DNA of 64,000 nt from Callorhinchus milii. Lineage: Eukaryota. Both the position numbers and the translations under genes were made by a program. The DNA is taken from the NCBI RefSeq assembly GCF_018977255.1, contig NW_024704742.1, positions 78,618,001 to 78,682,000 of the forward strand. The letters run 5' to 3'. Position 1 is the stretch's first letter. Every line of letters starts with the position of its first letter. Below, piece after piece: positions 17,558 through 54,854 of this stretch. Under the pieces are notes generated by a model that saw nothing but the letters and a program-made list of their open reading frames with translations, ran no database searches and was not told where the DNA came from.

Positions 17558-18139
17558 AGGTCCTACAATAAATGCAAGGATTATTATTATTATTATTATT
17601 ATGATTGAAGCAGTCATGGGTTACGGGACAAAATTATTATTCTTTTTAAGATTATTACCCCCGGAAAAGCGATTGCTGGGTAAGCAGAGGCGCGGGGAGT
17701 AAGGAAACTTGCCTAACGCTTCGCCCGCCCGGGAATCGAACCCGGGTCCTCTCGCTCTCACCCCTGAGCTGCACCGCACCTCGATTTTTGAAACCGTTGG
17801 CGTCTGTTTGCAGTGAAGCGGTTCAGGTGACGGCTGCAGAGTGACAGGAGCTGAGAGAGAAGAACCCCCACCCCTCCCCACCCCCCAGATAATAATAATA
17901 ATAATAATAATAATAATCCTTGCAGGGCATTGGCACAAGTGGGGAGCCCTTTCCAAACTGGGTAACAAAAGCTCTTCTTGGGGGTGGGGGTGGGGGGCAG
18001 ATATACTTTTGCAGGTTTTAATTTTTTTTAATGTTTTAATTTTTTTATTGGTTTTAAAAAAAGCCGTTTTTCTCACCCCCGCCACAGAAGAAACCCCCCC
18101 CCCCCCGCCCACACCAAAAAAAATCGCCCAAAAAGGACA

Positions 18140-18857
18140 CGAACCCGCCCCAAAATAACCCAAACCTGCCCAAGACAACCCAAACCCGCCCAAAACAACC
18201 CAAACCCGCCCCAAAACAACCCAAAACCCGCCCAAACCAACCCAAACCCGCCCCAAAACAACCCAAACCCGCCCCAAAACCGCCCCAAATCCGCCCCAAA
18301 ACAACCCAAAAACGCCCCAAAACAACCCAAAACCGCCCCAAAACAACCCAAAAACGCCCCAAAACAACCCAAAAACGCTCCAAAACAACCCAAAAACGCC
18401 CCAAAACAACCCAAAACCGCCCCAAAACAACCCAAAACCGCCCCAAAACAACCCAAATCCGCCCCAAAACAACCCAAAAACGCCCCAAAACAACCCAAAA
18501 ACGCCCCAAAACAACCCAAACCCGCCCCAAAACAACCAAACCGCCCCAAAACAACCCAAACCCGCCCCAAAACAACCCAAACCCGCCCCAAAACAACCCA
18601 AACCCGCTCCAAAACAACCCAAAAACGCCCCAAAACAACCACAAAAAACGCTCCAAAACAACCCAAACCCGCCCCAAAACAACCCAAACCCGCCCCAAAA
18701 CAACCCAAAAACGCCCCAAAACCGCCCCAAAACAACCCAAATCCGCCCCAAAACAACCCAAAAACGCCCCAAAACAACCCAAAAACGCCCCAAAACAACC
18801 ACAAAAAACGCTCCAAAACAACCCCAAAACGCCCCAAAACAACCCAAACCCGCCCCG
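18140..18857. repeat. Minisatellite, 21-22-bp unit (CCCAAACCCGCCCCAAAACAA and variants), ~33 copies
   Basis: Directly visible tandem array; the minus strand is G/T-rich with GGGGCG in most units. Confidence 0.97.
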
Positions 18858-18859
18858 AC

Positions 18860-19070
18860 CTGGTCACGGTGGTGGTGGTGGTGATGGGGGGATTGAGGGC
18901 GGGGCCGCGAGGCAGGACAGGCGGCGCTCACTCACTTGCCCATAAAAGGAGGCGTTTCCTGACACCGGACGTGACGATGTAACGGTCAAATTTCAAACCA
19001 CCGCGTCGCATAGAATGTTGTCACTTCCGGCCGGCCGGCCTGGCGCTTACAGACAGGGAGCAGGTCAGTG
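18860..19070. promoter_or_regulatory. CpG-rich, probably bidirectional promoter of THUMPD2
   Basis: High CpG density, GC box (gagggcgggg ~18895), CRE/ATF-like 'gacgtgacg' (~18968), ETS/GABP motif 'cacttccgg' (19022), and outward-facing splice donors on both strands. Confidence 0.7.
19020..19063 (+). other. THUMPD2: Putative non-coding first exon of THUMPD2 (TSS approximate)
   Basis: Donor 'gcag|gtcagt' just downstream of the ETS site. The ATG exon at 22494 is preceded by a splice acceptor, so an upstream exon is expected. Confidence 0.5.
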
Positions 19071-19496
19071 GCGATCAGTCCCCACACACACACACACACA
19101 CACAGTCCCGTCTCTCCCCCTCCCCCCCCCCCCCCCCCAGGACTGTCAGCGACATCCAACACCAACTACTGCTGTTCATATAAATAATAATAATAAATTG
19201 GTCACTTCAATCCACCACCGTTTGTGGGACACTGCTCTGCGCAATTGGCCGCCGGGTTTCGCCCACAAATATACGGTCCAATTCACTGTACAGTCTGTTC
19301 TGTGAAGCGCTTTTTGAGACGTGGAGAAGACGTGACGAGCGCTATGTCACACGCGAAGGGCTATTATAACACTCGGCGTCTCTCAGCACAGGGCAGTGTG
19401 GGAGCCTGACCCGGAGTGGGGGGGGGAGGAGGTGAGCGTTAGCACCAGAGGTCGAAGAGGAAGGTCTTCAGGTGACACCGAAAAGGGGGGGGAAGG

Positions 19497-19795
19497 AGAG
19501 GGCCACGCGGCGGGAGGGAGAGGGCCACGCGGCGGGAGGGGGAGAGGGCCACGCGGCGGGAGGGGGAGAGGGCCACGCGGCGGGAGGGAGAGGGCCACGC
19601 GGCGGGAGGGAGAGGGCCACGCGGCGGGAGGGAGAGGGCCACGCGGCGGGAGGGAGAGGGCCACGCGGCGGGAGGGAGAGGGCCACGCGGCGGGAGGGGG
19701 AGAGGGCCACGCGGCGGGAGGGAGAGGGCCACGCGGCGGGAGGGAGAGGGCCACGCGGCGGGAGGGGGAGAGGGCCACGCGGCGGGAGGGAGAGA
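19497..19795. repeat. Minisatellite, 22/24-bp unit AGGGCCACGCGGCGGGAGG(GG)GAG, 13 copies, inside a minus-strand L2 3' end (19385-19900)
   Basis: 13 counted 'ccacgcgg' cores. The flanks translate on the minus strand as L2 SHCAPKLW and HLKTFLFD. Confidence 0.95.
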
Positions 19796-20235
19796 GACGA
19801 GCGCCCCAGAGTTTCGGGGCGCAGTGGCTGGCAGCGTGCGCGGCGGGCGGCCTGTGGTGGAGTGGAAGGCGCGACGCACAGTCAGGGCGCCTCGCAGGGC
19901 CAGTCGAGGCAGCTGGTGCCACAGAGGGGAGAAAGCAGGTCGGAAAGGTTAGGGAGGGATTGGTGCACGAGTGAGAGAATCTCGACACCGATCCGTTCTG
20001 TGTTAGGGAGTCAGTGGGACCCTGTGGGGAGGACTGGTGTGATGGGGGCACAGAGCTTAGTGTGGATGAGAATATGGGCAGAGCTGATAGAGATCAGTTG
20101 TAGTCTGTGGGTTGTGGAGCTGGGGTGTCAGTCGGGGAGGGAGGTAATGAAGACGTGGAGGATCATTTTGGCTGTGTTTGAAGTGAGACACGGTTGGAGG
20201 TGGGCAGTGTGAAAGAGGTGGAGGAAAGCGGTCTT

Positions 20236-21887: not shown

Positions 21888-21998
21888 CTGGGCCAATAGA
21901 GAGGTGCAGCCACAATTTTTGACACCTGGTCTCAGCACTCTGTTGCCGATTGTTTACCTGACGCTACTGTGGTCGGAGCGTCTCCAGACACACACGTG
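21888..21998 (+). mobile_element. Terminal fragment of the same hAT family as 36863-38177
   Basis: Begins 'ctgggccaataga'; 'gctactgtggtcggagcgtctcc..acacacacg' aligns to the reverse complement of ~38000-38080. Confidence 0.65.
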
Positions 21999-23737: not shown

Positions 23738-23870
23738 GTGGAACAAATCTCTGGAAAAGTGTTCTTTACATCTGAAGCAGATTTGAAAAAACTGAAGAGT
23801 CTGAAATGCGCAGAAAGACTGTTTCTACTTGTGAAAAAGTTACCTCCACTTCAGATTCCTGGATATAGAG
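23738..23870 (+). CDS. THUMPD2: THUMPD2 coding exon 2
   Basis: VEQISGKVFFTSEADLKKLKSLKCAERLFLLVKK versus human VEYISGKVFF...LKSAERLFLLIKK; cag|...|gtatga; 133 nt. Confidence 0.95.
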
Positions 23871-23969
23871 GTATGACATTTGTTTTCAAAAAAAATGGCC
23901 AGCTCTTAAGGTATTTAACTATAGCACATCTTCAATTTCAATGCTGGTGTGTAACTACAGCAGTAAATG

Positions 23970-24380
23970 TCAGCTTGTCTCAGTTGGTAGCACTTTCACC
24001 TCTGAGACAGAAGGCTGTGGGTTCAAGCCCCAAGCCTTGGAAGTCACCTCGTCTAAGCTGACACTCCAATGCAGTGCTTAAGAACGCTGCATTGTTGGAA
24101 GAGCCGTGTTTCAGATGAGACATTAAGCCCAGGTCCCGTCTGCGTTTTCAGATGCATGTTAAAGATCCCATGGCGCTATTCAAAAAGAGAGGGAAGATTC
24201 TCATGGTGCCCTGGCCAACAATTCTCCAAATAAAATTGTTCATTGCTTCATGGAAAATTGTGTACAAATTTGCTGTATTGGTTTACATAACACACAACAC
24301 TTTTCAGTATATTTAGTGAAGCACTTCGGGACGTCCTCCTGACGTTAAAGGCGTTCTACCAAATGTAAGGATTACTATTA
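23970..24380 (+). mobile_element. Old long Deu-domain SINE
   Basis: 'ctcagttggtagcac...gggttcaagccc...gatgagacattaagcccaggtcccgtctgc...aaagatcccatggc'. Confidence 0.85.
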
Positions 24381-24676
24381 ATAAATATGTTTACCATGTA
24401 TTTGACTATTAGACCTTATATTCTCTTGTACAAAGATGGAAATAAAGTATTTATTTCCTGTAGCTTTGTTTGCAGTTATATTCAAACTGGTTGCATCAGC
24501 GAAACCCCAAATGAGCATCCTTCGAAATAAGTGAAGCACATACACCTCCTCTAATAGTCTGAACGTAGGCTTTTTTACATTCCACTTATAGGTTGTCTGT
24601 TGTTGATTCAGCAGTACTTTAGCTGCTTCTATTTTTACAGCAAAACTCAAGTTTTTTCTTTGTTTTAAATTCCAAG

Positions 24677-25098
24677 GAAAAGGAATTTATGTTCTTCAGA
24701 AATGTGTGATTGGAGAACCTAGCCAATGGTTGAACAGTGTTTCCACATGGGAAAATCTTCAGGACTTTCATAAACCAGAAGAACAAACTTTAGGTGTGAC
24801 TGAAAACGGGCTAAAACGGCCATCCCAGGAAGAAAGCAATGAGACAAAGACTAAAAGAGAAAAGTTAGACAGTGACCTAGATGAAGCCGCAGTTACAGCC
24901 CCGGATAAAAGTCCAACCGGACAATCTGATCTCCTTTCAAAAACTCAAGGAAACCGCCAGGAAAGTGTTACAGCATCACAGAGCACACTGCCCCCTGATG
25001 AGCCATGTAAGCCTACGAATGAAAGTGATACCACCAGAATGAGTTTCAGAGTCTCCTGTCGTTGCAGTGGCAAAATGGCTAAAAGGTTTACTGCACAG
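24677..25098 (+). CDS. THUMPD2: THUMPD2 coding exon 3
   Basis: ...EPSQWLNSVSTWENL...SFRVSCRCSGKMAKRFTAQ (THUMP domain start); aag|...|gtaatt; 422 nt, phases consistent. Confidence 0.95.
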
Positions 25099-25123
25099 GT
25101 AATTATTTTCAAATGTATTATGT

Positions 25124-25439
25124 AATAATAATAATCCTTGCATTTGATATAGCGCTTTTCACGTCTTCTCGACGTCTCAAAGCGCTTCACAGAATATACT
25201 GTAAAGTGAATTGACTATATTTCTGGGCGAACGCGGCAGCCAATTGCGCACAGCAATGTCCCACAAACAATCGTAGATTGAAAATGATCAATTTATTATT
25301 GTTTTGTTTTTTGGAGGGATTATTATTAGGCTCTGTGTGGAGTAAGGAAACTTGACTAAGGTTTCGCCCTCTGCCTGGAATTGAACTCAGGTCTCTCGCT
25401 TACAAAGCGAGTGCTCTAACCACTGAGCTACAGGACTCC
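25124..25439 (-). mobile_element. Young tRNA-derived SINE, full length
   Basis: Reverse complement of the 17232 family. Confidence 0.9.
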
Positions 25440-25703
25440 ATAATACTGCATAATACTGCATAATGCACAGGGAATTAATATTGCAGGAACTTTGAGCAGA
25501 ACAGAGAAGTTCTGAAACAAAATGATTTTTTTACTCTGTAATTGGAGAAAACCAAGGCAGATTTATAATTTGTAGGCTGTTTTCCCTTCCCTGTAAAACA
25601 CTTTGGGATGTTTTAATTTTCCAGGTGCTGCATCAAATGGTAGGATTGTTGCATATTTTCCTGTAAGTCCTTATCTGCTCCTTTAAGGAGGGAGGGAATT
25701 TGG

Positions 25704-26020
25704 AGGTTTGGAGCTCGGTGGTTAGAGCACTCGTCTGGCAAGCGAGAGACCTGGGTTCGGTTTCCGGCAGGACAAAACCCTGGGCAAGTCTCCTTACTCC
25801 ACATGCCTGAAAATAATCCCTCAAGAAAAAACACATAATAAATTGGTCACTTCAATCCACGACTGTTTTTGGGACACTGCTGTGCACAATTGGCTGCCGA
25901 GTTTCGCCCACAAATATACAGTCAATTCACTTTACAGTATATTCTGTGAAGCGCTTTGAGACGTCCAGAAGATGTGAAAAGCGCTATATCAAATACAAGG
26001 ATGATTATTTTTATTATTAT
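25704..26020 (+). mobile_element. Young tRNA-derived SINE
   Basis: Same family, more diverged. Confidence 0.85.
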
Positions 26021-26239
26021 TGAAACACTGCAGTATAATAAAGCCTATTGCAAATGTACCAGAAGTCAGTGGTTAATGAAATAGTGTGACTGGTTGCTGA
26101 GCTGGCATTAATTCTGCGCTTCAAGAATATTGTGTAAATTTAAAAAACTAATGTACAGGTTTTTAAAAAGGCCACTTTTCCACTGCTATAGTGTTTGCTT
26201 AAAAAACAATGCAGATCACGTTTCTGTTTGAGACGCCTG

Positions 26240-27352
26240 GTTGCTTAAAGCATTCTTCTCCAGCCCCCACACTGTCGTGTCCCCCAGTGCTCTGTCCTTG
26301 GCCCTCTCCTCTTTAATATCTACATGCTCCCCCTTGGTGACATCATCCGCAGACATGGGGTCAACTTCCACATGTGTGCAGATGACACCCAACTCTATCT
26401 TTCTGCCTCCACCCTCAACTCCAGTACCACTGCTGTCCTGACAGACTGTCTGTCGGACATCAAGTCCTGGATGAGGGCAAATTTCCTACAGTTGAATGTG
26501 AACAAGACTGAGGCCCTCCTGATTGGCTCACACCAGCGCCTCAGCACCTCAGGCTCTGGCAACATCAACCTCCATGGTTGCACACTGCAACTCACCAAGA
26601 CAGACCTAGGGGTCTTGTTCGACCCTCAACTGTCTTTTCTCCCTCACATTCAACCAATGACCCGCTCTGCCTTCCCTCACCTCCGTAACACATCGCCCGA
26701 CTCCGCCACTACCTCACCCCTCAGGCCGCTGAAACTCTTGTTCATGCCTTCATCACCTCCAGGCTCGACTATGCAAATGTCCTGCTTGTCAGCCTTCCCA
26801 ACTCCTCCCTCCACAGGCTGCAGATAATCCAGAACTCTGCAGCCCGTGTCCTCTCCCGCACCAATCTCCGTGATCCCATCTCCCCCACCCTCGCCCGACT
26901 CCATTGGCTCCCTATCCTTCAAAGGATCCAGTTCAAAATCCTGGACCTCACCTACAAAGCCCTCCATGACCTCGCCCCACCCTATCTCTGTGACCTCCTA
27001 ACCCCCTACCAACCCACCCACTCGCTCCACTCAGCCATCTCCGGCCTGCTCCATGTCCCCAGACCCACCCGCCCATCATTGGCAGGAGAGCCTTCAGCCA
27101 CACTGCCCCCAACCTCTGGAACTCCATCCTCCAATCAAACCGCCTCACCCCCCTCCTTAGCCTCTTTCAAGTCCCTTCTCAAGACCCTCCTCTTCGACTA
27201 TGTCATTGGTCACCCCCCTTCCCCTCCCCTCCCTTCTCCCCCCTGACCGGAGCTCGGGTCTGAAATGCTGCACAGTGCCAGTCCCAGTGCCTTGGGACTT
27301 ACTCCCGATGTGAAAGGCACTATACAAATCTTGTTGTAATCTTGTTGTTGTT
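26240..27352 (+). mobile_element. 5'-truncated L2 LINE (RT C-terminal half to 3' tail)
   Basis: [25 protein letters not shown]...[15 protein letters not shown]; (ttg)n tail. Confidence 0.92.
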
Positions 27353-27950
27353 GATCATCTTTAGATTTGCATTGAGTTACAATGTGACTCACAAGATCAC
27401 ATTTGAGATTGTTCCTAACTTGTATTTGGACTAAGTGTATTTCTACAATACAGTACTCCTTTTGCTGATTTTACTCCTGATTTTCAAATTGCACATTGTC
27501 ACTGTAAATTTATATTACAAGATGTGTTGGGTGGAAACATTATTGCCAGGGGCAATTTTGGAAGTGCTAAAAGTGGTAGCCCATAAAATCCATGGACACT
27601 ACAATTTACAGTAAATTTTGTGACGTTTCGATGATGAGATGTGAAATCCACTGATTGCTATAGTGTGCTAAAAAAATGCAACAAATGAAAAAATTATTAT
27701 TCAGACAGGTACTGATGAAGAATCCTTTGATTTGATTCTTTCTAGAATATTCATCTTACCATCATGTCATTAAACCATCAAACTATTTCTTAAATAACTC
27801 CAGCATACTGTCTTCTACTATATCATAAATTTTCAACTCTTCCTGGCCAGGTTTTCACAGACGCAGAATGTGAATTTGCAGTTTTTTTGTTGAAGATCAT
27901 AAGGCCTTGATTGTGAATGTACTGATCCTGCAGATATTATTCCTTCACAG

Positions 27951-28028
27951 GAGTTGGGAAGAGCAATTGGGGTTGCACTTGCCAAGGAAATGGGCTGGAA
28001 AGCAGAGTTGAGAAACCCTACACTCGAG
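27951..28028 (+). CDS. THUMPD2: THUMPD2 coding exon 4
   Basis: ELGRAIGVALAKEMGWKAELRNPTLE; cag|...|gtaaga; 78 nt. Confidence 0.95.
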
Positions 28029-29133
28029 GTAAGAGCATAGCAATTGGGTACCTGCATTCAGATTTGTCCTTACCTTCATGTCAGCCACAGAAAATGTAGT
28101 CAATATCCTGAGTTTTGTACCCTGTGCTTGGAGCCTTATTTTATTATGTGCCCATGATGTTAGTGATTTATCTTATAGAAAGGTTTCTGCTTAATTTCAC
28201 ATGATCTTGTGCTATGCTGCCAAATTCACTTCACATCTTGCCACATGGGCCAAAAATATCAGCATAATATATGATGCTTAAGCCAGTTCTGCAAATTTAT
28301 GAATCACCACATTTGCATTTTAAAATTGTACATCAATCCAAGAAGCCAACACTGAGTACTACTGGCAAAGCTTCATAAACCTTAATGAAATACTTTTAAA
28401 CAGTCCTACCTCAGTCACTATGGTGGTTTCGGGGACAACCTCTGTACATCCCAAAATGGCTCTGTTAACTTCAGTCGGAAACAGCATTTTAAATTGATTT
28501 ATGAACAAATCTGCAGCTACTGAAGCTGGACCAAAATCACTATGCCTGACTTTAATTTAGTCATCACACCTGTCATAAGGAAAGACCTTTATTTCTTAAT
28601 GAGATACATTCAGTTGGAGCTAATAGAAACCTTTCTGTTTACCTATTGTTTGCTTGCCAAGGTTGCAGGATGTTTTGGGCAAAGGATATCTAACCCTGTT
28701 GTTACCTAAGTAAAACCTTCTCAACTTGCTTCCAGCAGCTACCAGGGTTAAATCTCTGATTTTTTTGCCTAGTGATTCTGATTGAAATTAATTTAGTGGC
28801 GCCAGGTTGTGTCTGAGATCTACTTCAATAGAACAGCTGAGGGGGAAGTGGATCTGGAACATCAGATGGTATACAAGACTAAAAATAACTAGTCAAAATT
28901 GCCAAGGTTTTCTATAAGGTAGTAAACAGCATTTTGATGGTTTTTTACTTTTAAAGAGAGATTTACTTTGAATGGAAAATATTTTTGTCATTTAGTCCAG
29001 CTACTGAATTATTTAAATCTCGAGTTCTATGCATATCCTGTGCATGCCTGTACTATTAAATAGTTATCATTTATAAACTACTTTTCTAACGTATGTGATA
29101 CCAATTAGATTTAATTCAATGCCTTCTTTGCAG

Positions 29134-29186
29134 GTCTTTATTCATTTAAGTGACATTCATTGTGTGGTTGGAATTCCTATTGTGAG
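29134..29186 (+). CDS. THUMPD2: THUMPD2 coding exon 5
   Basis: VFIHLSDIHCVVGIPIV(R); cag|...|gtatca; 53 nt. Confidence 0.93.
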
Positions 29187-29294
29187 GTATCAATCTTTAT
29201 AATTATTTTGCTTGACTTTTTTTCTTAATTGCTAGCACGTTATTACACATTGTACACGCATTCTAACTAGCATGTGTTCTTGTATATGTCCTAG

Positions 29295-29382
29295 GCTCCC
29301 TTTAGCTAGCAGAGATTATATTAAAACCGTTGGATTAAGATCTACTGTAGCTTGGGCAATGGCATATCTCGCTGACATCAAG
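29295..29382 (+). CDS. THUMPD2: THUMPD2 coding exon 6
   Basis: LPLASRDYIKTVGLRSTVAWAMAYLADIK; tag|...|gtaggc; 88 nt. Confidence 0.95.
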
Positions 29383-29790
29383 GTAGGCATCAATGTTTTA
29401 ATAATATTTGTGATTGAATATGGGATTTTTGCTTATTAACTACATAAAGTATTGCGCTTCCCTGCAGCCACTTAACTGAGATCAATTACATAATTTTTCA
29501 CTCTGTTTTTCCCAGGACCTCAAACTGAAACTTCTAATCTCCTTCGGTATCCTCTTCTTTCTGCAATAATGAAGCCTCTCAAAGCTAAACATAGTTTGGC
29601 TTGTCGTTACTTCTGAATTTATCTCTTCTACCCTATTTTTTTCAACTTGGTGGTATCCTGCATTATGTATCTAATGTATATTTACTGAGCTGTGATGTTG
29701 ATGGTGGTAAGTACTGTATACTATACTGTGATAATTTTTAAATTGCATCATGCAACTATAAAACATAGGACTATTTCCCCCTGTTTCTAG

Positions 29791-29862
29791 ACTGGTTCAT
29801 TTGTCTTGGATCCAATGTGTGGAATGGGAACCATCTTGGTGGAAGCTGCCAAAGAATGGCCT
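29791..29862 (+). CDS. THUMPD2: THUMPD2 coding exon 7 (SAM-binding motif I)
   Basis: TGSFVLDPMCGMGTILVEAAKEWP; tag|...|gtaagt; 72 nt. Confidence 0.96.
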
Positions 29863-30161
29863 GTAAGTAATGAATCAGAACATTCTGCATGTCGAGCGAG
29901 CAGGGCAAGTTGTTTTTTGAACATTGCATAATATTAAAGCTGAGGCATTACTGAACTGCCTCGTTTAAATTCATATTAAATTACTGTACGGGTGGGCAGC
30001 AGTAGCCAAATATGTCTGGTAGGACATTGATAAAGTTTGGGCCTACTTGTACAAATTGCTGATATGATCAGTTAAAATAGTTTTTTTTTAGTAAACTCAG
30101 AAGACAGCAACATTTAAAAGAAAAGCTGCACTCAGAACTTACTATATTTTCACCATTCCGT

Positions 30162-30282
30162 ATTTCTTACCACAATTTTTTTATCGTCTTAATAACTGCT
30201 TCAGTTTTTGCTTTGAAGAAGACAGTTTACTACTGGAGAATGAAGCAGTTATCAAGATGGTAAAAAAATTGTGGTGAGAAAT
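30162..30282. repeat. Inverted repeat / foldback core, probably an old MITE
   Basis: 'atttcttaccacaatttttttatcgtcttaataactgcttca' pairs with 'tgaagcagttatcaagatggtaaaaaaattgtggtgagaaat'. Weaker symmetry extends to ~30045-30415. Confidence 0.75.
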
Positions 30283-31436
30283 GCAAAAGAAAGAAAGTTG
30301 CTGTCGCATTTATTTGCCGATCACAATGTTCTGCTTTGCTTTCTCAGTTTTGACAGAAAAAGTCCCTGATCTTCCTGCATTATCCTGTCCATTATTCCAT
30401 GTAAAATTTACAAGTTTACCTCCAAATAATTTTGATATGATATATGGTTTCTTGATCTGGATTTTTTTTGGAGGGTGGGGGCAGCCAGTTATCTGATGTA
30501 CATAAAAATCCCATACATAAGAGTCCAAACCAAAATATTGAGAGTTCCACATATGTATGGTTTCCGTTTATCTGGTATAGAGTGAGTACTCTCTTCCCCA
30601 TAGGAACACTCCCAGAGAATTAGGTGCCGGTTGGCAACAACCATAACTTAAAGATACCAGAGCGTACATTGGGGTGCTGCAGGAGATTAACTAAAACCCC
30701 ACAGGCAACCATTGAAAATGAAGGCAGGCATGCATGTCCATTTAGAACCACCTTGCTCTTTAGGGCTTTGGCTTGCAGTGTTAACAGCATTGAATGGGAA
30801 AAATTCCATCCCAATGACTCCTGGTGTGCTCCTCCGAGTTTGAATAATGAGCCAGGCTGGTTGTTTCATCATCACCAGTGTTTTGGGATACCGAGGACCT
30901 AAGGTTGGGTATCAGACTACTGAGACTGCCATAGAGAATCAATTGTATTCTGATCTTACAATTTCTAAGCTGGTCTCCTTTCTTATCGCCCGGAGGTTGA
31001 TCAATCAAATCTGATAAACACCAGTTTTGAGCCCTCATTGAGTGGATAGCAGGTACCAATAACACTTTGGGAGCCACTCAGCAGAAAACGAGTGAGAGTA
31101 TTGCTACCATTCTTCTGCTCCCCCACAAAGCCTGTTTTCTTACACCAACCATTGAGAGATGGTTCAACCAGCTGGGGATTCAGAAGTTTAGCAGCAGCTC
31201 TTTACTGATCTGTGTACCGATGAAGGTAGACACCAATCCCTGGATATATGACCATGGGTTTGTATGAAACAATGTTTTGCTTTGTTATTGAATACTGGAA
31301 ATTCAGGAAAGGAAACTATTCCAGATGACTGAATGAAAATTTCTGTATTTATAGGAAAACTCTATCCTCTTAGTTGTAGCATGATGAAATTGACTATTTT
31401 GTTACGTTTACTCCTCCCCCCCCACCCCTTTTACAG

Positions 31437-31551
31437 AATGCCTATTACCAAGGGATTGACAACAATACCTCACAGTTAAAGATAGCATCCACCAATGTAT
31501 GCTTTGCAAAGCTAGCTGGCAACATTGATCTAATGAGAGCTTCTGTCACAG
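31437..31551 (+). CDS. THUMPD2: THUMPD2 coding exon 8
   Basis: NAYYQGIDNNTSQLKIASTNVCFAKLAGNIDLMRASVT; cag|...|gtattg; 115 nt. Confidence 0.92.
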
Positions 31552-31689
31552 GTATTGGTGAATTCTATGTACTCTGTCAAATGCAAGATTTATACTTTTC
31601 AATGATTTAGCTGTACCAAACTTTCAGTTAATAATGTGTGTTTCAAATTAGTTTTAGTTTTCAAGTTTAGAACTTTAGTTAATAGCACT

Positions 31690-31970
31690 GTTGCCTCTGA
31701 GTCAGACGTCTGTGAGTTCAAACCTAATTTTGGGACTTTGAGCTCCCAGTCCAGGCTGAAACTCAGAGCAGTGATGGGGGAATGCTTCGTCAGAGATTCC
31801 ATCCTTCAATGACACATTAAATTGAAGTCCCATCTGCATGTTCAAGGGGATGATAAAAATCCCATGACATTATTTGAAAAGGAAACAGTGCCAGTAATTC
31901 CATAGATTTTTTTTAAAAATGGCCAATCATTTCATGGCTTTTTGTGGTCATTGCTGTGTGTAACTAGACT
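31690..31970 (+). mobile_element. Old Deu-domain SINE, degenerate
   Basis: 'gcctctgagtcagacgtctgtgagttcaaacc...aaaatcccatgacattatttgaaaag'. Confidence 0.7.
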
Positions 31971-32324
31971 AATTAATAATTAGTTAACTTTCATGTTGGG
32001 AGGACGTCTTAAAAGGATATACTGTAAAATGTAATGACTATTTTGTGAGTAAATTTAATTTCTCAGCGTTTTAAATTTGGTCAAATGGATTTAATACATG
32101 GTGAATATTATAGAGTAGCGTTTTGGACCCCATAAACAATGTATTCATGTGTACATAGGGTATTGTGGAACCATAACTTCATGGCCCCCAATCTAATCAA
32201 TGTTTTCATTATTTGGTTCACTGGATGTCTCATGAGAAGCTTGTGGAACAATTCAATTCCTTGCTTAATTTTAAAATGTGTATTTTTTACGATAAACATT
32301 TAATTACTGCGTTGTACATTGCAG

Positions 32325-32445
32325 AACTGCCTCTTCTTTCTGAAAGTGTGGATGTAGTCATTTGTGATGTTCCATTTGGAAAAAAGTTTAAAATTTCACA
32401 AGACTCAAAGACCGCAATGCCACATATTATCAGAGAGATGGTGAG
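32325..32445 (+). CDS. THUMPD2: THUMPD2 coding exon 9 (motif IV-like DVPFG)
   Basis: (E)LPLLSESVDVVICDVPFGKKFKISQDSKTAMPHIIREMV(R); cag|...|gtaagt; 121 nt. Confidence 0.95.
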
Positions 32446-32709
32446 GTAAGTCACATCAAGTACCAGTGCTCTTTCTCAATCTAAATGTCAGTCTCATATA
32501 TTGTTAAAAATGTTTGATTGAAATTTTAAAGGGGAGGGGAAAGTATCACAATTTGATCATTGTAAAACTGCTGTGAAGAGGATTTCCTTACTGTATTGAG
32601 TAATTCAGATTATGTTAAAAAAAATTCTCTCAGAATTTTTAAAGGCTTAATTGGAATCCTATATGACTGCAGAGTAAGACCTTCTCTATAACAACCATTT
32701 GTTTTATAG

Positions 32710-33049
32710 GGTTCTTCGTGTAGGTGGGACTCTTTTGCTTTTACTTAGTCAAGAGCTGTCTTTGGAAATGCAGAGGTGGTTCAAGTCGAGGAACCAAAAG
32801 TGTGACCAAACAGAACTTTCTGCTGCAAAGGACACTGATAGATTATCAACGAAGCTTTGTTCAGACCCAGTGAAAGATTTTGACATTGTCGTTGAGGATA
32901 TTTCTTTGCCCGGCATCACTGGTGAAAATGAAAAATGTGAAATGAAAATAAAGGCTATTGCTCCCCTAGTATCGAATGGTATTTTCCAAGTGAGCCTGGG
33001 TGTAACTGAGGCAGCTATACACAGATACAAGAAGTGTTCCGTAACATGA
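32710..33049 (+). CDS. THUMPD2: THUMPD2 coding exon 10 (terminal). Joined CDS is 1530 nt / 509 aa; THUMP-domain SAM-dependent m2G RNA methyltransferase
   Basis: VLRVGGTLLLLLSQE...FQVSLGVTEAAIHRYKK-stop versus human VLHVGGTIVLLLSE...YKVSLGKTDAFICKYKK. All ten exon phases join in frame. Confidence 0.95.
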
Positions 33050-35790: not shown

Positions 35791-36394
35791 TACGCAAGCT
35801 TAGCTGTTCTTAACACAAGGTTCATACACAGGTCATAATACATCAATGTAAAATGCTTGGATTAGCAGCTCATGCAAACATGAAATGTCTTTTTAAAATA
35901 AATTTGTTTTCATGTGTTTTAAACAGATATTTAAATAGAGCCTTAATAAAGCTCAAACGGTATCAGATTTGAAATGTAATAATACATCACTATTTCCAAG
36001 CAGAAGTAATGGCATAAATCTTTCTGTAGAAGAGTACCTGGTCACAATTTTAGTGACCAGGTGGACAATATGCTTACATTAGCAGCTTTTTAAATGCTAA
36101 CATTACTCACCACTATCAGCATGAAATAATTCTACAAAATATATTTAGTGTGGACTGGATCCAAATGAGACTTTGGCCCAATTTCCTAATAATCCTTGCA
36201 TTTTTTGATATATCACTGTATCATGTCTTCGAGACATCTCAAATGTACCTCACTGAATATACTATACAGTGAATTAACTGTTTTTGGGGTGAAATGCTGC
36301 AAACAATTGTGCACAGCAGTGTCCCAGAAACAGTCGTAAAATGAGGGACCTAATTATTTTTATTAATATTTCAAAATAGAATAGGTGTCACTTT

Positions 36395-36770
36395 TGCTCA
36401 GTTGGTAGCACTCTTCCTCTGAGAAAATTGTGGGTTCAAGCCCCATGGCAGGACTTTGAACTCACAATTTCGCCTGATATTCCAATGCAGTACTGGGGGT
36501 GTGCTGTATTGTTGAAGGTACTGTCCTCCGGATGAAACACTAAACCGAGGTCCCATCTGCCTGATTAGATGGACGTAAAAGATCCCATTGGCACTATTAA
36601 AAAAAGAAGTTTCCTGTGTTCTTTTCCAAAAATCCCCAAATAAAATTGGTCATTCACTTTATGGTTTTTTTGGGACATTGTTGAGCGCAAATTTACTTTT
36701 TTGCCTGCAAATATAGTCACTATTCTTTACGGTAAAATTCTGTGAAACGCTTTGAGATATCTTGATGCAC
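36395..36770 (+). mobile_element. Old long Deu-domain SINE
   Basis: 'gctcagttggtagcactc...cggatgaaacactaaaccgaggtcccatctgcc...aaagatccca'. Confidence 0.85.
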
Positions 36771-37064
36771 TTTGCACTTCTATGTTGCCTTTCACATCTT
36801 GAAGCATTTGTTCTATTTCAAGTACTTGCTGTATAGCAGTACTGCAAGGCATTGCTGATGACCTGGGCCAATAGAAAAGTGTGGAAATATTTGCAAAAAA
36901 TTTGGGAGCGTTGTGTGAAGGTTGCAGGAAATTGTGGAGGTCTTTTGTTAAATTCTGTGGGGAAGTTGCGGGGGTTGATTGATGCTATTGAGAGATGCAT
37001 TTTGCTGCTAACCTACATTTTTTCTCTTTTTCATTTTTAAAAACTAAACAAGAAGAAATAACAA

Positions 37065-37301
37065 CATCATAGATTATTGGAAAAAATCTATTTATTAATG
37101 TTTTCTTTAACAAAAACAGAACTCCTTGTTTTGTGTACTTGCATAGAAACTCCTGGAAGGCAGAAGCTTTTTCAAGTGGTATGTCTGCTCCAGTCAAACA
37201 CCGCACAATGTCCAATAAGAATTCTTTCCTCTCCATAGATGATGCAGTGGCTCCAGAGAAGAAGGTTGTCAGAGCAAGTTGTCTTTGAGGTTCAGAATCA
37301 C
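37065..37301 (-). pseudogene. CGGBP1-like / hAT transposase N-terminal remnant, segment 2
   Basis: Acceptor tttccag| followed by DSEPQRQLALTTFF...ERKEFLLDIVRCLTGADIPLEKASAFQEFLCKYTKQG, versus recalled human CGGBP1 EKVSVIQDFVKMCLEANIPLEKADHPAVRAFLSRHVKNGG. Confidence 0.8.
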
Positions 37302-37469
37302 CTGGAAAGGAAAAAATAAAAATTGATCTTCATAATGCATTTGTCATCAGAAATGTTCTGTCTATTGTTTTTGTTTGTTGTGGTTGTTTTATGTTCTTTT
37401 AAAATTAAGTCAAAAAGGAGGGAGGTTAACTTTTGTAATCATACAAATTAAGATCTTCTTTCAAATTAA

Positions 37470-37645
37470 AATGAAAGCAAGTAATAATAATACATTTTTA
37501 TTTAATATTATATATATCAAAAGTACTTTAACTTCTTTTTTTTCTTTATTGCCCCAGCAAGGCAGTGGCAATAAAGAAAGAAAAAGGTAAAATACTTTTG
37601 AAGTACATAATATTGAATAAAAATGTATTATTAGTTGATTTCACT
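37470..37645. mobile_element. Palindromic 176-bp MITE flanked by TTAA (Kolobok/T2- or piggyBac-type target)
   Basis: The two halves are near reverse complements around a 13-nt loop; TTAA at 37466-37469 and 37646-37649. Confidence 0.75.
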
Positions 37646-37788
37646 TTAATATTTCCGAGATTTCATGTGCTCATCAATGGTGTACTTGCGAACATGGTCA
37701 ATTGTGTGACAGCAAACGTGGCAAAATAACTGCCCCCCCTCTTCATCAAGGTCATCTGGATAGAGTACAATTTTTTGTATTGTACAAC
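37646..37788 (-). pseudogene. CGGBP1-like zinc-finger remnant, segment 1
   Basis: Acceptor cttttag| followed by ...YPDDLDEEGGQLFCHVCCHTIDHVRKYTIDEHMKSRKY*, versus recalled human CGGBP1 ELHEDGGKLFCTSCNVVLNHVRKSAISDHLKSKTH. The last His is Tyr and a stop follows. Confidence 0.82.
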
Positions 37789-38185
37789 CTAAAAGTGAAA
37801 CAACTCCTATTAAAACTATAGGTATGTATTTCCTGAAAATGTAGTTATGTTTAAAATACTAAATATTTTAATTTGAACCGTACAGCACTTACCGAGAAGT
37901 CGTCGCGGTAGTGTGTGACTCAGCTACTTTTCCTATCGAGTTTACTCACCGGCAAAGTCGATTTCCTGCACACGCCGCTTCCACAATCCCAAAATTTACC
38001 ACGCCGTGTGTGTGCGATCGGAGCCGCTCCGAACATGGTAGCGGAGTCGAGCAAACAGCGTGAGAGGCCTGGGGCCAAGCGCACTGTGTGTAAAGATTAG
38101 TACCCGAGGGGTTGTTTGGAGTTTGGCAAGGCTCGTTGTAGTGGAAAAAGTGCGCCCGCACTTTTCTATTGGCCCAGCGGATGAC

Positions 38186-38600
38186 AGATCAGCCAACCTG
38201 GCTAACTGGCAGGATTTGAAAGGGAAGATTGGTCAATAGGGACAGATATTCTTCCCAATCGGCTACTGTTAAACTTGCAAGGCAAATCGCTAATGAGTAG
38301 GGTGCTACGAGCTGGACAAGCACCGGGAAGCTTGCCAGACAGTACTTTGAATGGAAAACTACTCAGTTTTCGCTTGTTAAAGTCCAGCAATTCCCCAATA
38401 CACTCTCTGAGGTCCCCAAACCTGGGTTCTCACCAAACTGAACCAACTAATCTCTGGAACTGGGTAAGCAGTGTGCATCCTTCCAGGGAGAGAGTGAATA
38501 TTTCAATCCAGGTACAGGGAAATGCCCACGTGTAGGTGGCTGACACATATGGAAGTCTCAGTCTGATTTGGATACTCTTGAGCATGGTGACACATACTCA
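38186..38600 (+). repeat. Unclassified old interspersed repeat (copy 1 of 3)
   Basis: Aligns in reverse complement to ~60130-60505 and ~40380-40500. Confidence 0.65.
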
Positions 38601-47689: not shown

Positions 47690-50600
47690 GCCTGCGGGCT
47701 GATGCCGTCCCGCTGTTCGCTCGCTCCCAGTCTTTGAGTGCGCGTTTTGGCTGCCGCCCCAACCCGAGCCTCCCCCTCCACTCTAACTGTCTCTACTCCC
47801 ACCTCCCTCTATCTGCTACTCCCCCTCTGTCCTTCTCTCCCACTGGCCCCCCGTCTTCTCTCTCTCCTTGACTCCATCACCACTTCCCTCTGCTCCTCCT
47901 TAAGGCAAACACAACTTCCCCCTCCCTCATACGTATCCTCACCAACTCTCTACTCACACCACTCTCCACAAACATCTCTCCTGTACACCCTAAAATCCTC
48001 TCCAAATCACTTTCTCCTCCAACCAGCAAACCCACCCGCATTTCCCTCCAAAATGTCCGTTCCCTCTCTAACAAAGCCCTCACCATCCATGACCTCACCC
48101 TGGACAAGCACCTTGACATTCTTGGCCTCACAGAAACCTGGCTCTCCCCCAATGACCACATCTCTCTAGTTGAAGCCTCCCCTCCAGACTACACCTTCCA
48201 CCACAGCCCCCGTCCGAACCAACATGGTGGTGGGTTGGCCTTTATCTCCAAAGCCTCTCTTGGTTTTACCCCCTACTCCTCTGTCTGCTTCCCATCCTTT
48301 GAGTACCTCACCCTCTTCCATCCCTCTATCCACTGAAAATCCTCCTTGTCTACCGCCTCCCTGAGCCCCCTGGCTCCTTCCACACAGACATCTCTACTCT
48401 CCTCTCTTCCTTGTCCCTCTGCTCCGAATGCCTGCTCATAATGGACAATTTCAACCTCCACCTAAACTCCCCTTGCACCACTTCTTCCGACTGCACTGCC
48501 CTCCTCTTTTCCCTAAACCTCACTCTTCACATTAACTCACCGACCCACAACTGCGGCTATGCCTTCCACATCATTATCACCCATGGCCTTGACATTTCCG
48601 ACCTTAGCATAGTGGACAAGGCCATCTCGGACCACTCCCTCATCTCCTTCTCCTCTCACATCCCTCTCTCCTCCACCAATCCTTCAACCATTCTCTACTG
48701 CCCATGGAAAAGGCAACCCCTTGAGACCCTCGAAAAGACCCTCACATCCTCAAATATCCTATCCCTCTGGCCTTCCACCCACAGAGATTCTGAAGCAGCC
48801 GTCCAACTGTTCCATGATCGTCTCTCCTCCACCTTCAACTCCCTCGTCCCCCTGAAATCCAGGACCATCTCCAAACCCACACGATCCCCCTGGTATAACA
48901 ATCATCTCCACTCCCTAAAAACCCAAACCCGGCTGCTCGAGCGCAGATGGCGGAAAACTGGCCTGACAGTTCACCACCAAATGTTGCTCGAGCATTTCCA
49001 CAGCTACCGCTGTTCTTTGACACCCGCGAAAACAGCCTTCTACTCCAACATCATCTTGGAGGCCAAAAACAATCCAAAAATCATTTTTTCCACCAACAAT
49101 TACCTCCTCCGTGCCCCCCTTAGGCCTCCTCAATCTTCACATCCAATACCAAGTCGAGGATGTCATGGACTTCTTTTCATCCAAAATCCACAACATCCGC
49201 CAGGCAGCCTCATCCGCCAGCTTCTTGTTACCCACCACCACCCCCTCTCCGTCCCCTTCACCCTCCCCATCATCAGCTCCTACTAAGACTCCCATCCTAC
49301 ATTCCTTCCTCCCCATCTCTCCCTCTTCCCTCTCACCCACCATCACCTCAATGAAACCCACCACCTGCTGCCTCGACCCCCTCCCCACAAACTTGCTGGT
49401 CACCCAGCTCCCCCTCCTCTGCCCACTACTGGCTGATGACATTAACCAGTCCCTCTCCTCTGGATCAGTCCCTGCCCCCATCAAAATGGCTGTCATCACC
49501 TCACTTCTCAAAAAACCTTCCCTAGATCCCTCAAACCCCAGCCATTACCGCCCCATTTCTAACCTGCCCTTCCTCGCAAAAGTCCTAGAATGCGTTGTTG
49601 CCAATCAACTCCACGCACACCTCTCCTCCCACTCCCTCTTCTAACCCCTCCAGTCCGGTTTCCGCCCTGCCCACAGTACAGAGACTGCGCTTGTGAAAGT
49701 CACAAATGACATCCTCTCTATCTGTGACCAGGGCTCCCTCTGCCTCTTGTCCTTCTGGACCTCTCCGTCGCGTTCGACATAGTCGATCACACCATCCTCC
49801 TCCACCGCCTTTCCTCCGTCATCCACCTCAATGGGACAACACTCGCCTGGTTCGAGTCTTACCTCACAAACCGCCAGCAGTACATAAACGGCTTCTCCTC
49901 CCACTCACACCCGGTTACCTGCAGGGTACCCCAGGGATCCATCCTTGGCCCCCTCCTCTTTCTGATCTACATGCTCCCTCTTGGGGATGTCATCCGCAGA
50001 CATGGGGTACACTTCCACATTTATGCGGATGACACCCAACTCTATTTTTCCACCACACTTTGCGACCCCCAGTCCCCTGATGTTCTGTCAGCCTGCCTGT
50101 CAGACCACAGGAGCTGGATGAGCGTGAATTTCCTTCAGCTGAACGTTGACAAGACGTTGACTTTGGCTCTCGTCAACATCTAAAATCACACGGTTCTCAC
50201 CTCCTCCACCTACCTGACCTCCCCCTAATACTCTCCGAACCCGTACGCAACCTAGGCGTCAGGTTCGACCCCCAATTATCCTTCCTCCCCCAAATTCGGT
50301 CCCTCACCAGCACCACTTTCTTACACCTCCGACGCATCGCCCGTCTCCACCAATACCTCACTCCAAAAGCTGCTAATACCCTGGTCCATGCCTTTGTTAC
50401 CTCTCGGCTGGACTATTCAAATGCCCTCCTCGCCGGTCTCCCCTCTACTACCATTTATAAAATCCAGGTCATACAAAACTCTGCCGCCCGCATTCTTACC
50501 CGCACCAAACTCCACTCCCCGATTACCCCAGTCCTTGCCAGACTGCACTGGCTGTCTGTTCCAGAGAGGATCGACTTCAAGATCCTCACCCTCCACTCCT

Positions 50601-50944
50601 CTACACCTGCCTACCTCTCTGACCTCCTTTCTCTCACAACAGTGCCTCCTGCCTTTGCTCCACCGGGTCTGGCTTCCTCCTTGTTCCCCGAGTTCTACTC
50701 TCCACCATCGGTGGCCGTGCCTTCAGCCACTATGCCCCAAGGCTCTGGAACTCCCTTCCTCACTCCCTTCATTTCGTCCCCTCTCTTCCCACTTTCAGGT
50801 CTCGGCTGAAGACCTTTCTTTTCAACTGCGCCTTTGGTCACCTTCCTCCCCCTCTCCCTGGCTCGGCCCGGGGATCCGTTACTGTGAAGCGCTCTGAGAT
50901 GCCATGCGGCATGGAGGACGCTATATAAATCCAAGTTGTTGTTG
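47690..50944 (+). mobile_element. Near-complete L2 LINE ORF2 (APE endonuclease + RT), disabled
   Basis: APE motifs LQNVRSLSNK...LGLTETWL...HGGGLAFI (~48040-48250) and DNFNLH; RT motifs YRPISNLPFLAKVLE, QGSILGP, YADDTQLY; (ttg)n tail. Several frameshifts and stops. 5' limit approximate. Confidence 0.93.
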
Positions 50945-52555
50945 CCCCCACTTCTCCCTCCTCCCTCTCAACAACGATCACCCGGATGAGACCTGCTGCC
51001 TCAAAACCCTCCCCACCCAGCTGCCCGTCACTCAACTCCCCCTCCTCGCCCCTCTGTTGGCCAACACAGTCAACCAATTTCTCTCCTCACTCCCCCTGAA
51101 AACTATTATCATCAAATCCCTCCTCAAAAACCCATCCTCGATCCCTCTAATCTCTCACACTACCATCCCATCTCCACCCTACCCTTCCTTGCCAAAGTCC
51201 TGGAACTCATTGTTGCAGGTCAACTTCAGTCACACCTCTCCCTCCACTCTCCCTTCAAACCCTTCTGTCTGGTTTTCACTCTGCCCACAGCACAGAAACA
51301 GCGCTTGTCAAAGTCACAAATGACATTCTCTCTCTCTGTGACCAGGGCTCCTTCTGCCTCCTCGTCCTCCTGGATCTCTCTGCTGCGTGCGACACAGTCG
51401 ACCATGCCATCCTCCTCCACAGTCTTTCCTCGCTTATCTACCTTAGCGTGACCACACTTGCATGGTTCAAATTCCGACTTAACCAACCACCTCCATTTCA
51501 TCTCAGCAAATGGTTTCTCTTCCCGCCCCCACCCAGTCACTTGAGGAGTACCACAGGGCTCCATCCTTGACCGTCTTCTGTTCTTTATCTATATGCTCTC
51601 TCTTGGTGATATTGTCCGCAGACATGGGGTAAACTTCCACATGTATGCGGATGACACATAAATCTCCTTTGCCTCCTCCAGTATCAACTCCAGATCCACT
51701 GATGTTTTATCAGCTTGTCTGGCAGACATCAGGGCCTGGATGAATGTAAACTTCCTGCAGCTAAATATGGACAAGACGGAAACCATATTCCTTGGCTCCT
51801 GTCAACGTCTTCTGAGGAAGTGAACCCGTCAACCTCCCTGAGCTCTCCCTAAAACTGAAATCCGGGTTAACCCCACCGTTCTTTTTCCCTCGCATCTGAT
51901 CCCTGGTAAGGACCGCCTTCTTCCACCTCCGCCACATTGGCTGCCTCCGACCAAACCTTAACCCAAATGCAGCCGAAATCCTCGTGCATGCATTTATCAT
52001 CTCCCACTTGGTTTTACTCCAACACATTCCATGCCGGTCTCCCCACTCCACCGTTCAAAAGATCCAGCTCATTCAAAACTCTGCCGCCCGCACACTGACC
52101 TGGATTAAACTCTGTACCCACATGTCACGAGTTCTGACCAGGCTCCACTGGCTCCCCATCACCGAACGGATCAACTTCAATATACTCAAACTCGTGTTCA
52201 AATCCATTCACTCCCTGGCACCCCCCTATCTCTCCGACCTTCTCACACCCCAATCCACCACCCGGCACCACCGCTCGACTGGCATCGGCCTCCTGCTCAT
52301 CCCTCACACCCTCTGCCCCACCATCGGAGGTTGCACTTTTAGCCAATATGCCCCCAAATTCTGGAAAACTCTCCCTCAATCCCTCTGCCTTGCCCCCTCT
52401 CTCCCTTCTTTCAAGTTCCACCTAAAATTTTCCTTTTTAATTGTACCTCCCCCTCCCCCCAGCTCGGAGTCAGCTCCACCACTGTTAAGCGCTCTGAGAT
52501 GCTACCCTGCATGGAGGGCATATATAAGTGCAAGTTGTTGTTGTTATTGTTGTTG
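50945..52555 (+). mobile_element. Second 5'-truncated L2 LINE in tandem
   Basis: RT motifs (atgtatgcggatgac = MYADD), LHWLPITERINF, and (ttg)n tail. Confidence 0.9.
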
Positions 52556-54854
52556 AGCCAATCTCAGCCAAGTCTGCTCCAAGGCTCAAGACTGGCAATT
52601 CAGAAGCTCACAAGCTGGCCACTCATGAACTTGGCCAAACTTCCTCTCAAACACACAACCCAAGTATGTAACAGTACTATCATATTGTATAGATATTCTG
52701 TTTCCTCAGTCTATAGCTTTCAATATCATTGCTAACCATATATTTATCCTTGTTCGGTGTCCAACCCCATCCCTGTGAAGCACTCTGAGATGTTACCCTA
52801 CATATATGAAGGGTGCCATATCAATGCAAGTTGTATTGAGCTTATTCAAGGAGTCAATTTAACAAATACATGTGCACAAAAATAAGAACTTATTCCATTT
52901 CTCAACACAAATATCACTCTCCCTAAATGTCCCAATATTAACCCCCCCCCCTGCCCCCCACCAACATTAACTTTGGCATTTCGAGAAAGATTTGCTCAGC
53001 GTGGACTCAGTTCAGTTGGCAGCCTCACCCCATGCTAAAGGCTTTACTGTGGCACAATGCCTGCAGTGCAACTGAGACATTATTACTCTCAATTTGTCAC
53101 TTCAACAGATTCTTAAATTGGGTTTCCTAACTTATCGTCCTCGAAGGGCTCGTCAAGAAAGTAATCATTAGTGCCTCATTCCTACAAAAATCACTTTGCT
53201 CCACAAATTTCATCTCACGCTGACTCAGGGATCTCAGCTCTGATGCTATCTTATGAGTTGATGTGATACACATGGGATTCCCAGTCGGAGATAAAGTTTA
53301 TGGCATAAACTGCAGTTTCTAGCAGCACCAATAATGCCACTACCTTCCTGAGCAACTCTTTCTCAGCCCCATTGTCTTAGCAAACTTTCCGAAGCGCACT
53401 ATGCCAGTGACAGCTGCAAAAGTTGGCTTTTTAAAGTACAATTTTGTGTTGGTGCATTTAGCTTTGCTTCACAGGGTTCCCATCTGAATGTACTATCTCA
53501 TCTGTTGTTTAGTATCAGTCCTGGTTCAAAGTATGCCTGCAGCAAGTGAATTTTAATTGCAGAGGACTGGAAGCAGAAGAGACTGATGTTATCTGAAGCA
53601 GCAATGTAAAATGACCAAACTAAATAAATCAAATTAAATCTGTAGTTGGAATAAATCGCTATTCTGCCTATTAGACTAATGCCTCTAAAGTTTAGCTCTT
53701 AAATCCTGTGGATGATTGAGGCAGCATCTTTTGTTGCTAGATTATGCCTCAAATCCTTCTCAATGATAAACTGAACTCTTGAATTAAGCATTCCTACAGG
53801 AACCACACATCTGCTGTGATACAGCATTTTGTTCGGAAATTGCATGAAGGAGAATAAAGTCCGACCTACGATTAGTGGATATAGTTGAAAAGGATAAGTA
53901 TACAGCTGAAGATCAGTAGAACTCGGGACCTTTAAAACCAGGGTTGATCTGATTTTCTTTTCACAATAAGTACTCTTTTTGTGTTGAAAGTCAATCGGTT
54001 GCAAAATTAATTTTCTTTGAAACTCCCACCCCAGACAGACAGACACACACAAACACACACACGTCTCCAATTTTGTTTTGCCTCTGGCTTCTGACATGCA
54101 TCACATCTTGCAGAGTGATGCATAAGTGATGTGCTCACAGATGGCCCACAGATGACCTGGCTCTGGCCTCCTACTTGTCCCTCGTCTCCTCTAAGCCTTC
54201 AGCTACTACGCCCGAAAGCTTTGGAACTCTCTCCCTCAAACCCTTCACTTTCTCCCGTTCTTCCTCTCTTTTAGATCACAACTGAAGACCTTCTTCTTCG
54301 ACCGTGCTTATGGTCACCTCCTCCCTACCCCCAGCTCGGCATCATACTCCACCACTGTTAAGCGCTCTGAGACGCTAGCCCATTGATAAATGCAAGTTGT
54401 TGTTGTCGAATCTTGGAATTGCGCATATTTAACCTCAGTGAGTAGCTGTATGTACCTAATATGCTTCCGATTGCTGTCCAAGTACATTGTGTGATGCTGG
54501 AATCACTCACAATCCAAGAGTAAAAGAGCTGTTTGGAGTTGTCCTATAATTTTGTTTTGGTATCTGGTTAATTTGATTGAGTCTCTTTGATGTTCCTGAA
54601 TAAACCCTGATTTCAACTGTTTCCACCGAGTTCTTTTTCCCAGATCAAACCCCCACCTCAATTTCTTCCTATTTTTTATGTTCTGAAAAATAGATCCAGA
54701 TAAAACAAATTAAAAAGAAACATTTATTTTTTGTTTTATTTTGTGAGTCAAATAATAATTTTAATGGTCCATAATTATTAATTACAATTTTTTGTTACAA
54801 TTCATAATAAAATTATATTGAGCTCTTTTGCCGATTATAGAATAAGGCATTAGC

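Follow-up and report, generated by a model that had tools for sequence, protein, structure and literature searches.

A probable dead, internally deleted copy of an old CGGBP-type hAT transposon family in the chimaera Callorhinchus milii

An origin of CGGBP proteins in hAT-19 transposons, and their repeated capture as host genes, have been published (PMC8097297 and PMC9004415). The closest described systems to the element reported here are the CGGBP-like hATs, mainly hAT-19 (hAT-19_Crp, hAT-13_LCh; Yellan, Yang and Hughes 2021, PMC8097297), which have in common with it a zf-BED-type finger and Hermes dimerisation segment, their invisibility to Pfam, an 8-bp target site duplication (TSD), and long relatives with hAT catalytic and C-terminal domains. 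It differs from them in its host, a chimaera, and in being a non-autonomous and broken copy; Table S1 of that paper contains no cartilaginous fish. A second comparable system consists of the Ds-del derivatives of maize Ac (PMC3260210), in which an internal deletion likewise leaves the terminal inverted repeats (TIRs), the subterminal regions and the 8-bp TSD in place, whereas the chimaera copy carries three stacked rearrangements, including a fold-back, and is ancient. Thirdly, KP-type P-element repressors (PMC12393704) similarly retain the DNA-binding front end after loss of catalysis, but as an intact protein, whereas in the present copy the start region is missing, one zinc ligand is lost and the dimerisation domain is cut short at its end. 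Lastly, amniote CGGBP1 and the other domesticated CGGBP genes encode a homologous domain (32-46% identity). The open reading frame (ORF) of a domesticated CGGBP gene is intact and retains both Cys and both His as well as two conserved prolines (PMC8097297); unlike these host genes, the present locus is bounded by TIRs, multi-copy, broken and placed on another branch. No paper on a CGGBP-type hAT of chimaeras was found among those listed by the literature searches.

The locus is situated in a window of 64,000 nucleotides, which is the whole stretch of DNA analysed. Sibling copies were surveyed in Logan contigs (about 130 nt on average) from four of the 24 listed sequencing runs, placed on positions 36600-38450 at 80% likeness. 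Of these runs, X1 is whole-genome-sized and the RNA status of X7, X9 and X13 is a guess only; no RNA holder occurred among the sequencing runs listed. The element is very probably a copy, now dead and internally deleted in the manner of Ds-del, of an old CGGBP-type (hAT-19-like) hAT transposon with many copies, broken by rearrangements that are likely its own. Its features are as follows.

36863-38177, gene on the minus strand: whole element, 1.3 kb between the outer edges of the TIRs
36855-36862, no strand: left TSD copy, 8 bp, 7/8 identical to the right copy
36863-36881, plus strand: TIR at the 3' end of the element, 19 bp; the listed X9 and X13 pieces start at 36863
36882-37123, minus strand: 3' subterminal region, likely the 3' UTR of the parent transposase gene, with AATAAA at 37096-37091
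37106-37105, minus strand: acceptor-like AG just upstream of the AATAAA
37122-37123, minus strand: junction of the large internal deletion, with a 2-nt overlap
37122-37301, minus strand: exon 3 remnant, encoding a linker and the first part of the Hermes DNA-binding/dimerisation domain (IPLEK motif), 59 codons open
37302-37464, minus strand: rest of intron 2, with the canonical acceptor AG at 37303-37302
37465-37650, no strand: fold-back, an inverted second copy of the end of exon 2, its donor and the beginning of the intron, all from the element itself; 77/89 identity between the arms
37649-37788, minus strand: exon 2 remnant, encoding a zf-BED-type finger with the last His changed to Tyr; homology from about 37772
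about 37774, minus strand: start-region junction, where the start-codon region of the sibling models is missing
37789-37892, minus strand: likely intron 1 (GT 37892-91, AG 37790-89), with 48 contigs at 37879
37893-38158, minus strand: 5' subterminal region rich in CpG, which likely holds the promoter and exon 1, the promoter role being presumed
38159-38177, minus strand: TIR at the 5' end of the element, 19 bp; X1 and X9 contigs have loose ends behind 38177
38178-38185, no strand: right TSD copy, 8 bp, pairing with 36855-36862

The termini are those of a hAT element, with short TIRs at both ends and an 8-bp TSD on a target of the nTnnnnAn type, which is the preference of Hermes, an element with 8-bp TSDs (PMC10368747). 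The TIRs, described in an earlier note on this DNA as perfect, are indeed identical at 19/19 positions (21/22 after extension), and its TSD was found again with the same 7/8 match, for which the computed chance is 4.4e-4. A 19-bp inverted pair within 5 kb occurred in none of 10 shuffled sequences, but this test is weak for the TIRs, as other repeats in the real window give many such pairs; the TIR call thus rests mainly on the sibling contigs. These fix the end at 38177, behind which 76 contigs of X1 and 27 of X9 leave the element exactly. The consensus of the flank in these contigs begins with GTTATGAC, a near-palindromic 8-mer, with a low agreement over 30 letters (0.44-0.46), and the TSD of the window begins with GTCAT on the minus strand. 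The flanks of the family share an 8-bp target consensus that resembles the hobo motif GTNCGNAC (PMC3276498). The exit of 76 contigs at one exact end, together with this shared consensus, indicates a multi-copy hAT family. Furthermore, two X1 contigs run across the left and right insertion junctions, each with two differences, indicating that the identical insertion is present in X1. The first letters of the TIR are CTG, where hAT TIRs usually start with CA or TA; this counts against the preferred reading, as does the perfect identity of the TIRs, which has only about a 6% chance under neutral decay at the age of the element. A TSD of 9 or 10 bp with shifted ends was rejected, as the siblings exit exactly behind 38177 and an end at 21888 likewise starts with CTGGG. 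This end belongs to a lone 5'-end fragment of the same family (21888 to about 22000, plus strand; 17/19 TIR match; similarity over about 110 nt beyond a 61-nt gap; flank GTGATGTA), for which no partner TIR was found in the 64-kb window. No empty-site allele appeared among the contig joints listed (15 of 161); the joint from 36862 to 38310 was discarded as a candidate, as it is found in one contig per run only and its right-hand coordinate is wrong.

Between these ends, two coding segments lie on the minus strand, namely the zinc finger (37771-37649) and the IPLEK segment (37299-37123), each of which follows a canonical acceptor (37790-89 and 37303-02), as had been noted before. Both resemble amniote CGGBP1 (P0084), the zinc-finger segment with 46% identity over 35 amino acids (pairwise E 3e-11) and the IPLEK segment with 32% over 57 amino acids (pairwise E 2e-7). 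When joined by X, the two peptides reach 103 bits against a profile built from 16 non-chimaera sequences, CGGBP1 among them, so that the expected match to CGGBP/hAT profiles was obtained, although Pfam returned nothing above its cut-off for either peptide. CGGBP1 itself falls below the Pfam cut-off too (PMC8097297). A search of the PDB with the zinc-finger peptide gave no match, and the ESM Atlas provided leads only (unnamed matches at 0.91-0.92 with low recognition; hAT-related clusters at 0.86-0.87). The segments combine the zf-BED finger and the Hermes DNA-binding domain that make up a CGGBP domain, and the exons match the N-termini of long DUF659/Dimer_Tnp_hAT proteins, in agreement with their homology to hAT transposases. 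The proposed coverage of CGGBP1 holds in part: both the zinc finger and the IPLEK region match, but the start region and the last 30 of the 167 aligned residues are missing. The copy is disabled, as had been claimed. The last zinc-ligand His is a Tyr (its codon sits on the fold-back junction and P0004 has the same Tyr) and is followed by a stop codon, the start codon is absent with the start region, the region of the second proline is deleted, and no open gene remains.

Around these exons, the sequence 36882-37123 is covered by 19-21 sibling contigs, whose aligned part ends at about 37123, and its AATAAA would function in polyadenylation. Intron 2 is absent from one X9 contig, in which 37648 is connected directly to 37303 with a frame error of one base, and two X13 pieces end at 37303. 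Intron 1 is putative, and its sequence is the portion most common to short derivatives. The CpG observed/expected ratio reaches 1.3-1.7 across 37863-38062, versus 0.40 window-wide, and the beginning of model P0013 aligns with 38036-37941 (53% over 32 amino acids).

The nearest proteins are seven C. milii models (P0001-P0006 and P0013), with 73-88% identity over the best stretches; exon 2 is 88% identical to P0004 over 41 amino acids and exon 3 is 73% identical to P0001 over 60 amino acids. A profile search of 5.8e9 proteins of 25-282 amino acids returned nine matches, namely these seven models and two distant ones, none of them being an intact ORF of the family. All seven models (90-161 amino acids, two of them labelled CGGBP1-like in UniProt/RefSeq) are broken, with zinc ligands missing or changed or with stretches that match the window in another frame, and all end before the first acidic (catalytic) motif. 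Longer relatives were found by phmmer with P0002, which gave 72 matches in 1.84e9 representatives, 18 of these being at least 380 amino acids long. Over the full domain, the long relatives named among the top matches (Coregonus, Latimeria, Diadema and unnamed) show 34-46% identity to P0002. Of 26 matches scanned, five, all of them long, have Dimer_Tnp_hAT above the cut-off, and their joint profile matches the Hermes transposase structures in the PDB through the catalytic part (E 2e-12). A weaker search for longer relatives, with the exon-3 peptide, gave none among 162 candidates. The CGGBP-type match and the hAT domains of the long relatives together indicate a domain of CGGBP type and a hAT as parent; the full-length parent, as reconstructed from relatives at 34-46% identity, would be a transposase of their kind. 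The earlier assignment to a CGGBP-type hAT family is thereby upheld on the basis of the TIRs, the TSD, the multi-copy ends and the exon homology to hAT transposases.

Sibling copies are both numerous and divergent, with 17-25 contigs per site in exon 3, 21 in exon 2 and 48 in intron 1, and the divergence of the sibling pieces listed amounts to 25-35 letters in about 200. Among the joints listed, many short derivatives connect the 3' end straight to 37795-37839 or to 38158. Several distinct MITE-size derivatives (joints from 36881-37023 to 37795-38158) were seen, and short derivatives seem far commoner than exon-bearing copies, judged by the depth at the ends and in intron 1. Metagenome scans gave no matches with a 22-nt TIR pattern and no confirmed stretch out of 259 with P0003. 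The many short members without any coding exons, as well as the introns in the coding part, would fit a fragment of a host CGGBP gene that was captured between unrelated TIRs, as Pack-type or Ds2-like filler. Yet the exons recur in the 17-25 divergent sibling contigs, the profile search detected no chimaera host gene in intact form, and among long relatives hAT transposases are the nearest, which makes such a capture extremely improbable.

The absence of a DDE catalytic region, claimed from the size of the element, was borne out, since none of 25 long relatives matches the 64-kb window beyond the N-terminal or CGGBP-like regions. Neither the RNase H-like DDE domain nor the C-terminal hAT dimerisation region of an autonomous element is present in the element or the window. 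At the junction, no contig with a variant at 37153 (25 contigs) or 37164 (17) extends from above past about 37122, and none with a variant at 37089 (19) or 37051 (21) extends from below past about 37123. This ending from both sides indicates that the siblings carry other sequence there; no joint across 37122/37123 was found among the joints listed (15 of 161). The break corresponds to residue 137 of the 167 of CGGBP1, before the GxIP..L..YL helix, and thus falls inside the Hermes dimerisation domain and not at the CGGBP1 boundary, with removal of the equivalent of the last 30 residues of CGGBP1. The relatives have their first DExxD motif 39 residues further on, and 462 residues are lost compared with the 594-amino acid P0031. 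By comparison with full-length relatives, the catalytic part, of about 460 codons, was likely lost at 37122. A similar discontinuity occurs at about 37774, where 21 contigs end and X13 record 14 has 196 other letters upstream of 37772; P0002, P0005 and P0006 have a Met-led N-terminus that is absent from the window. The description as a deletion derivative that keeps the domesticated portion therefore needs qualification: the DNA-binding exons are kept, but the start region and those last 30 residues are gone.

The third rearrangement had been read as a MITE insertion, which was rejected because both arms of 37465-37650 derive from exon 2 and intron 2 of the element itself. Indeed, translation of the inverted arm at 37547-37588 (plus strand) gives the residues found behind the zinc finger in sibling models; this arm terminates in a GT donor, which the direct arm has lost, and in two X1 sibling contigs the spot is bridged by no more than 22 and 25 letters. 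This segment is the element's own inverted duplication, and the stop after the zinc finger comes from it. The arms differ by 13-14%, compared with 12-17% among sibling copies, suggesting that the damage dates from near the active period of the family; the rearrangements are likely about as old as its burst. Among the rows listed (40 of 388 variants and 15 of 161 joints), the three rearrangements (at about 37774, 37465-37650 and 37122) are not common to the best-supported sibling contigs and are likely restricted to this copy. The case illustrates that an element's own fold-back can be mistaken for a MITE.

A private origin of the 37122 junction bears on whether the copy had as its ancestor a mobile CGGBP-only mini-element, or a short splice form, that acted as a KP-like repressor, and itself decayed later; such a descent is unlikely. 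The protein of such a mini-element would occupy subterminal sites and poison transposase dimers, and repressors of like design are known for P elements (PMC12393704). All seven chimaera models are short and end before the catalytic motif, although this would be expected if the annotation was projected from CGGBP1, and P0003 runs on in transposase-like sequence to just before the acidic motif. P0002 continues behind the dimerisation helix with the 3' segment of the window, which it enters at the AG of 37106-05, giving about the length of CGGBP1; either a short splice form or another deletion may underlie this. However, the junction of the window lies about 20 nt from that of P0002 in the 3' segment and about 30 codons earlier in the ORF, indicating separate events, and the listed siblings stop short of 37122. 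The X9 contig without intron 2 would suit a short spliced product, but it is out of frame by one base, and not one of the nine matches in 5.8e9 proteins is an intact ORF. The junction was therefore not retained as the mark of a shared CGGBP-only subfamily, the sibling contig ends speaking against it. Compared with a KP-like repressor, which combines a shared amplified deletion with an intact protein, this copy has a junction that is absent from the listed siblings and a broken ORF. That some sibling made an intact CGGBP-only repressor is given about one chance in ten. A wider version of the same idea is equally doubtful, namely that the family made a CGGBP-only protein while mobile, by splicing or by repeated deletions that connect the end of the dimerisation helix with the terminal poly(A) segment. 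Its TIR-bounded mini-genes would then have been KP-like repressors as well as the raw material of domesticated CGGBP genes, and some fish or coelacanth CGGBP 'host genes' would still lie within transposon ends.

The relation to amniote CGGBP1 was assessed by phylogeny. From 89 profile-positive rows, 21 were removed (cluster duplicates and low cover), leaving 68; P0006 and P0013, as out-of-frame halves, were also left out. A quick tree was made of 66 rows and a careful tree of 34 of the 68 rows, picked after the quick tree, over 142 columns. The six chimaera rows formed one group in both trees (100/99). In the careful tree they grouped with unnamed and teleost sequences, whereas amniote CGGBP1 sits with a coelacanth protein of 634 amino acids (97/74), behind a separate 100/99 branch. 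The grouping of the chimaera rows with CGGBP1, taken for testing from the hypothesis of the earlier note, cost 50 log units when forced and was rejected (p-AU 0.0017, for a short alignment and an unrooted tree). That the element is a relic of the lineage behind amniote CGGBP1, and hence a true evolutionary intermediate, is thus very unlikely, despite the clear homology of both exons to CGGBP1 and the same first four residues in P0005 and CGGBP1. Dozens of independent captures have been reported as well (PMC8097297). These first four residues, which P0005 and P0084 share across different branches, may reflect chance or an old feature of the group. On the alignment used, the chimaera family is not the CGGBP1 lineage. 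The reading as an intermediate between transposon and host gene was consequently abandoned, given the AU test, the private rearrangements and the break inside the dimerisation domain. Any deleted element in which the 5' part of a CGGBP-type transposase survives would look like such an intermediate, and the copy resembles CGGBP1 because both keep the front end of related transposases.

The element lies about 3.8 kb past the last coding exon (about 32700-33046) of a multi-exon plus-strand gene (about 23738-33046) with UPF0020 methyltransferase matches at 29791 and 32177; this THUMP/UPF0020 methyltransferase neighbour is presumably THUMPD2. Two tandem-repeat arrays (17500-18950 and 19340-20200) with long open frames on both strands precede that gene, high-copy interspersed repeats, judged by contig depth, flank the element on both sides (36380-36720 and 38274-38450), and a decayed ORF2, which is taken to be of LINE type, is found at about 47.9-52.6 kb (47872-52556).

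As for the mechanism behind this dead hAT copy, insertion was likely performed by the transposase of the family itself. The parent would have encoded a spliced transposase of about 600 amino acids, the zinc finger and dimerisation domain of which probably bound subterminal repeats, as suggested by the binding of such repeats through the BED finger in other hATs (PMC10368747), and the catalytic domain of which would have cut and pasted the element into 8-bp GTnnnnAC-like targets. At a later stage, break repair by template switching may have produced the fold-back and the two deletions. Derivatives of this class are known from Ac in the form of Ds-del (PMC3260210). Today the copy yields no functional protein, and it represents an ordinary relic and no step towards a CGGBP1 gene.

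The element adds nothing new on the origin of CGGBP1. If an amplified, intact CGGBP-only subfamily existed, it would have a bearing on the domestication of such genes, and otherwise none. The significance of the finding is modest and consists of the extension of CGGBP-type hATs to chimaeras, with a family end and a target preference.
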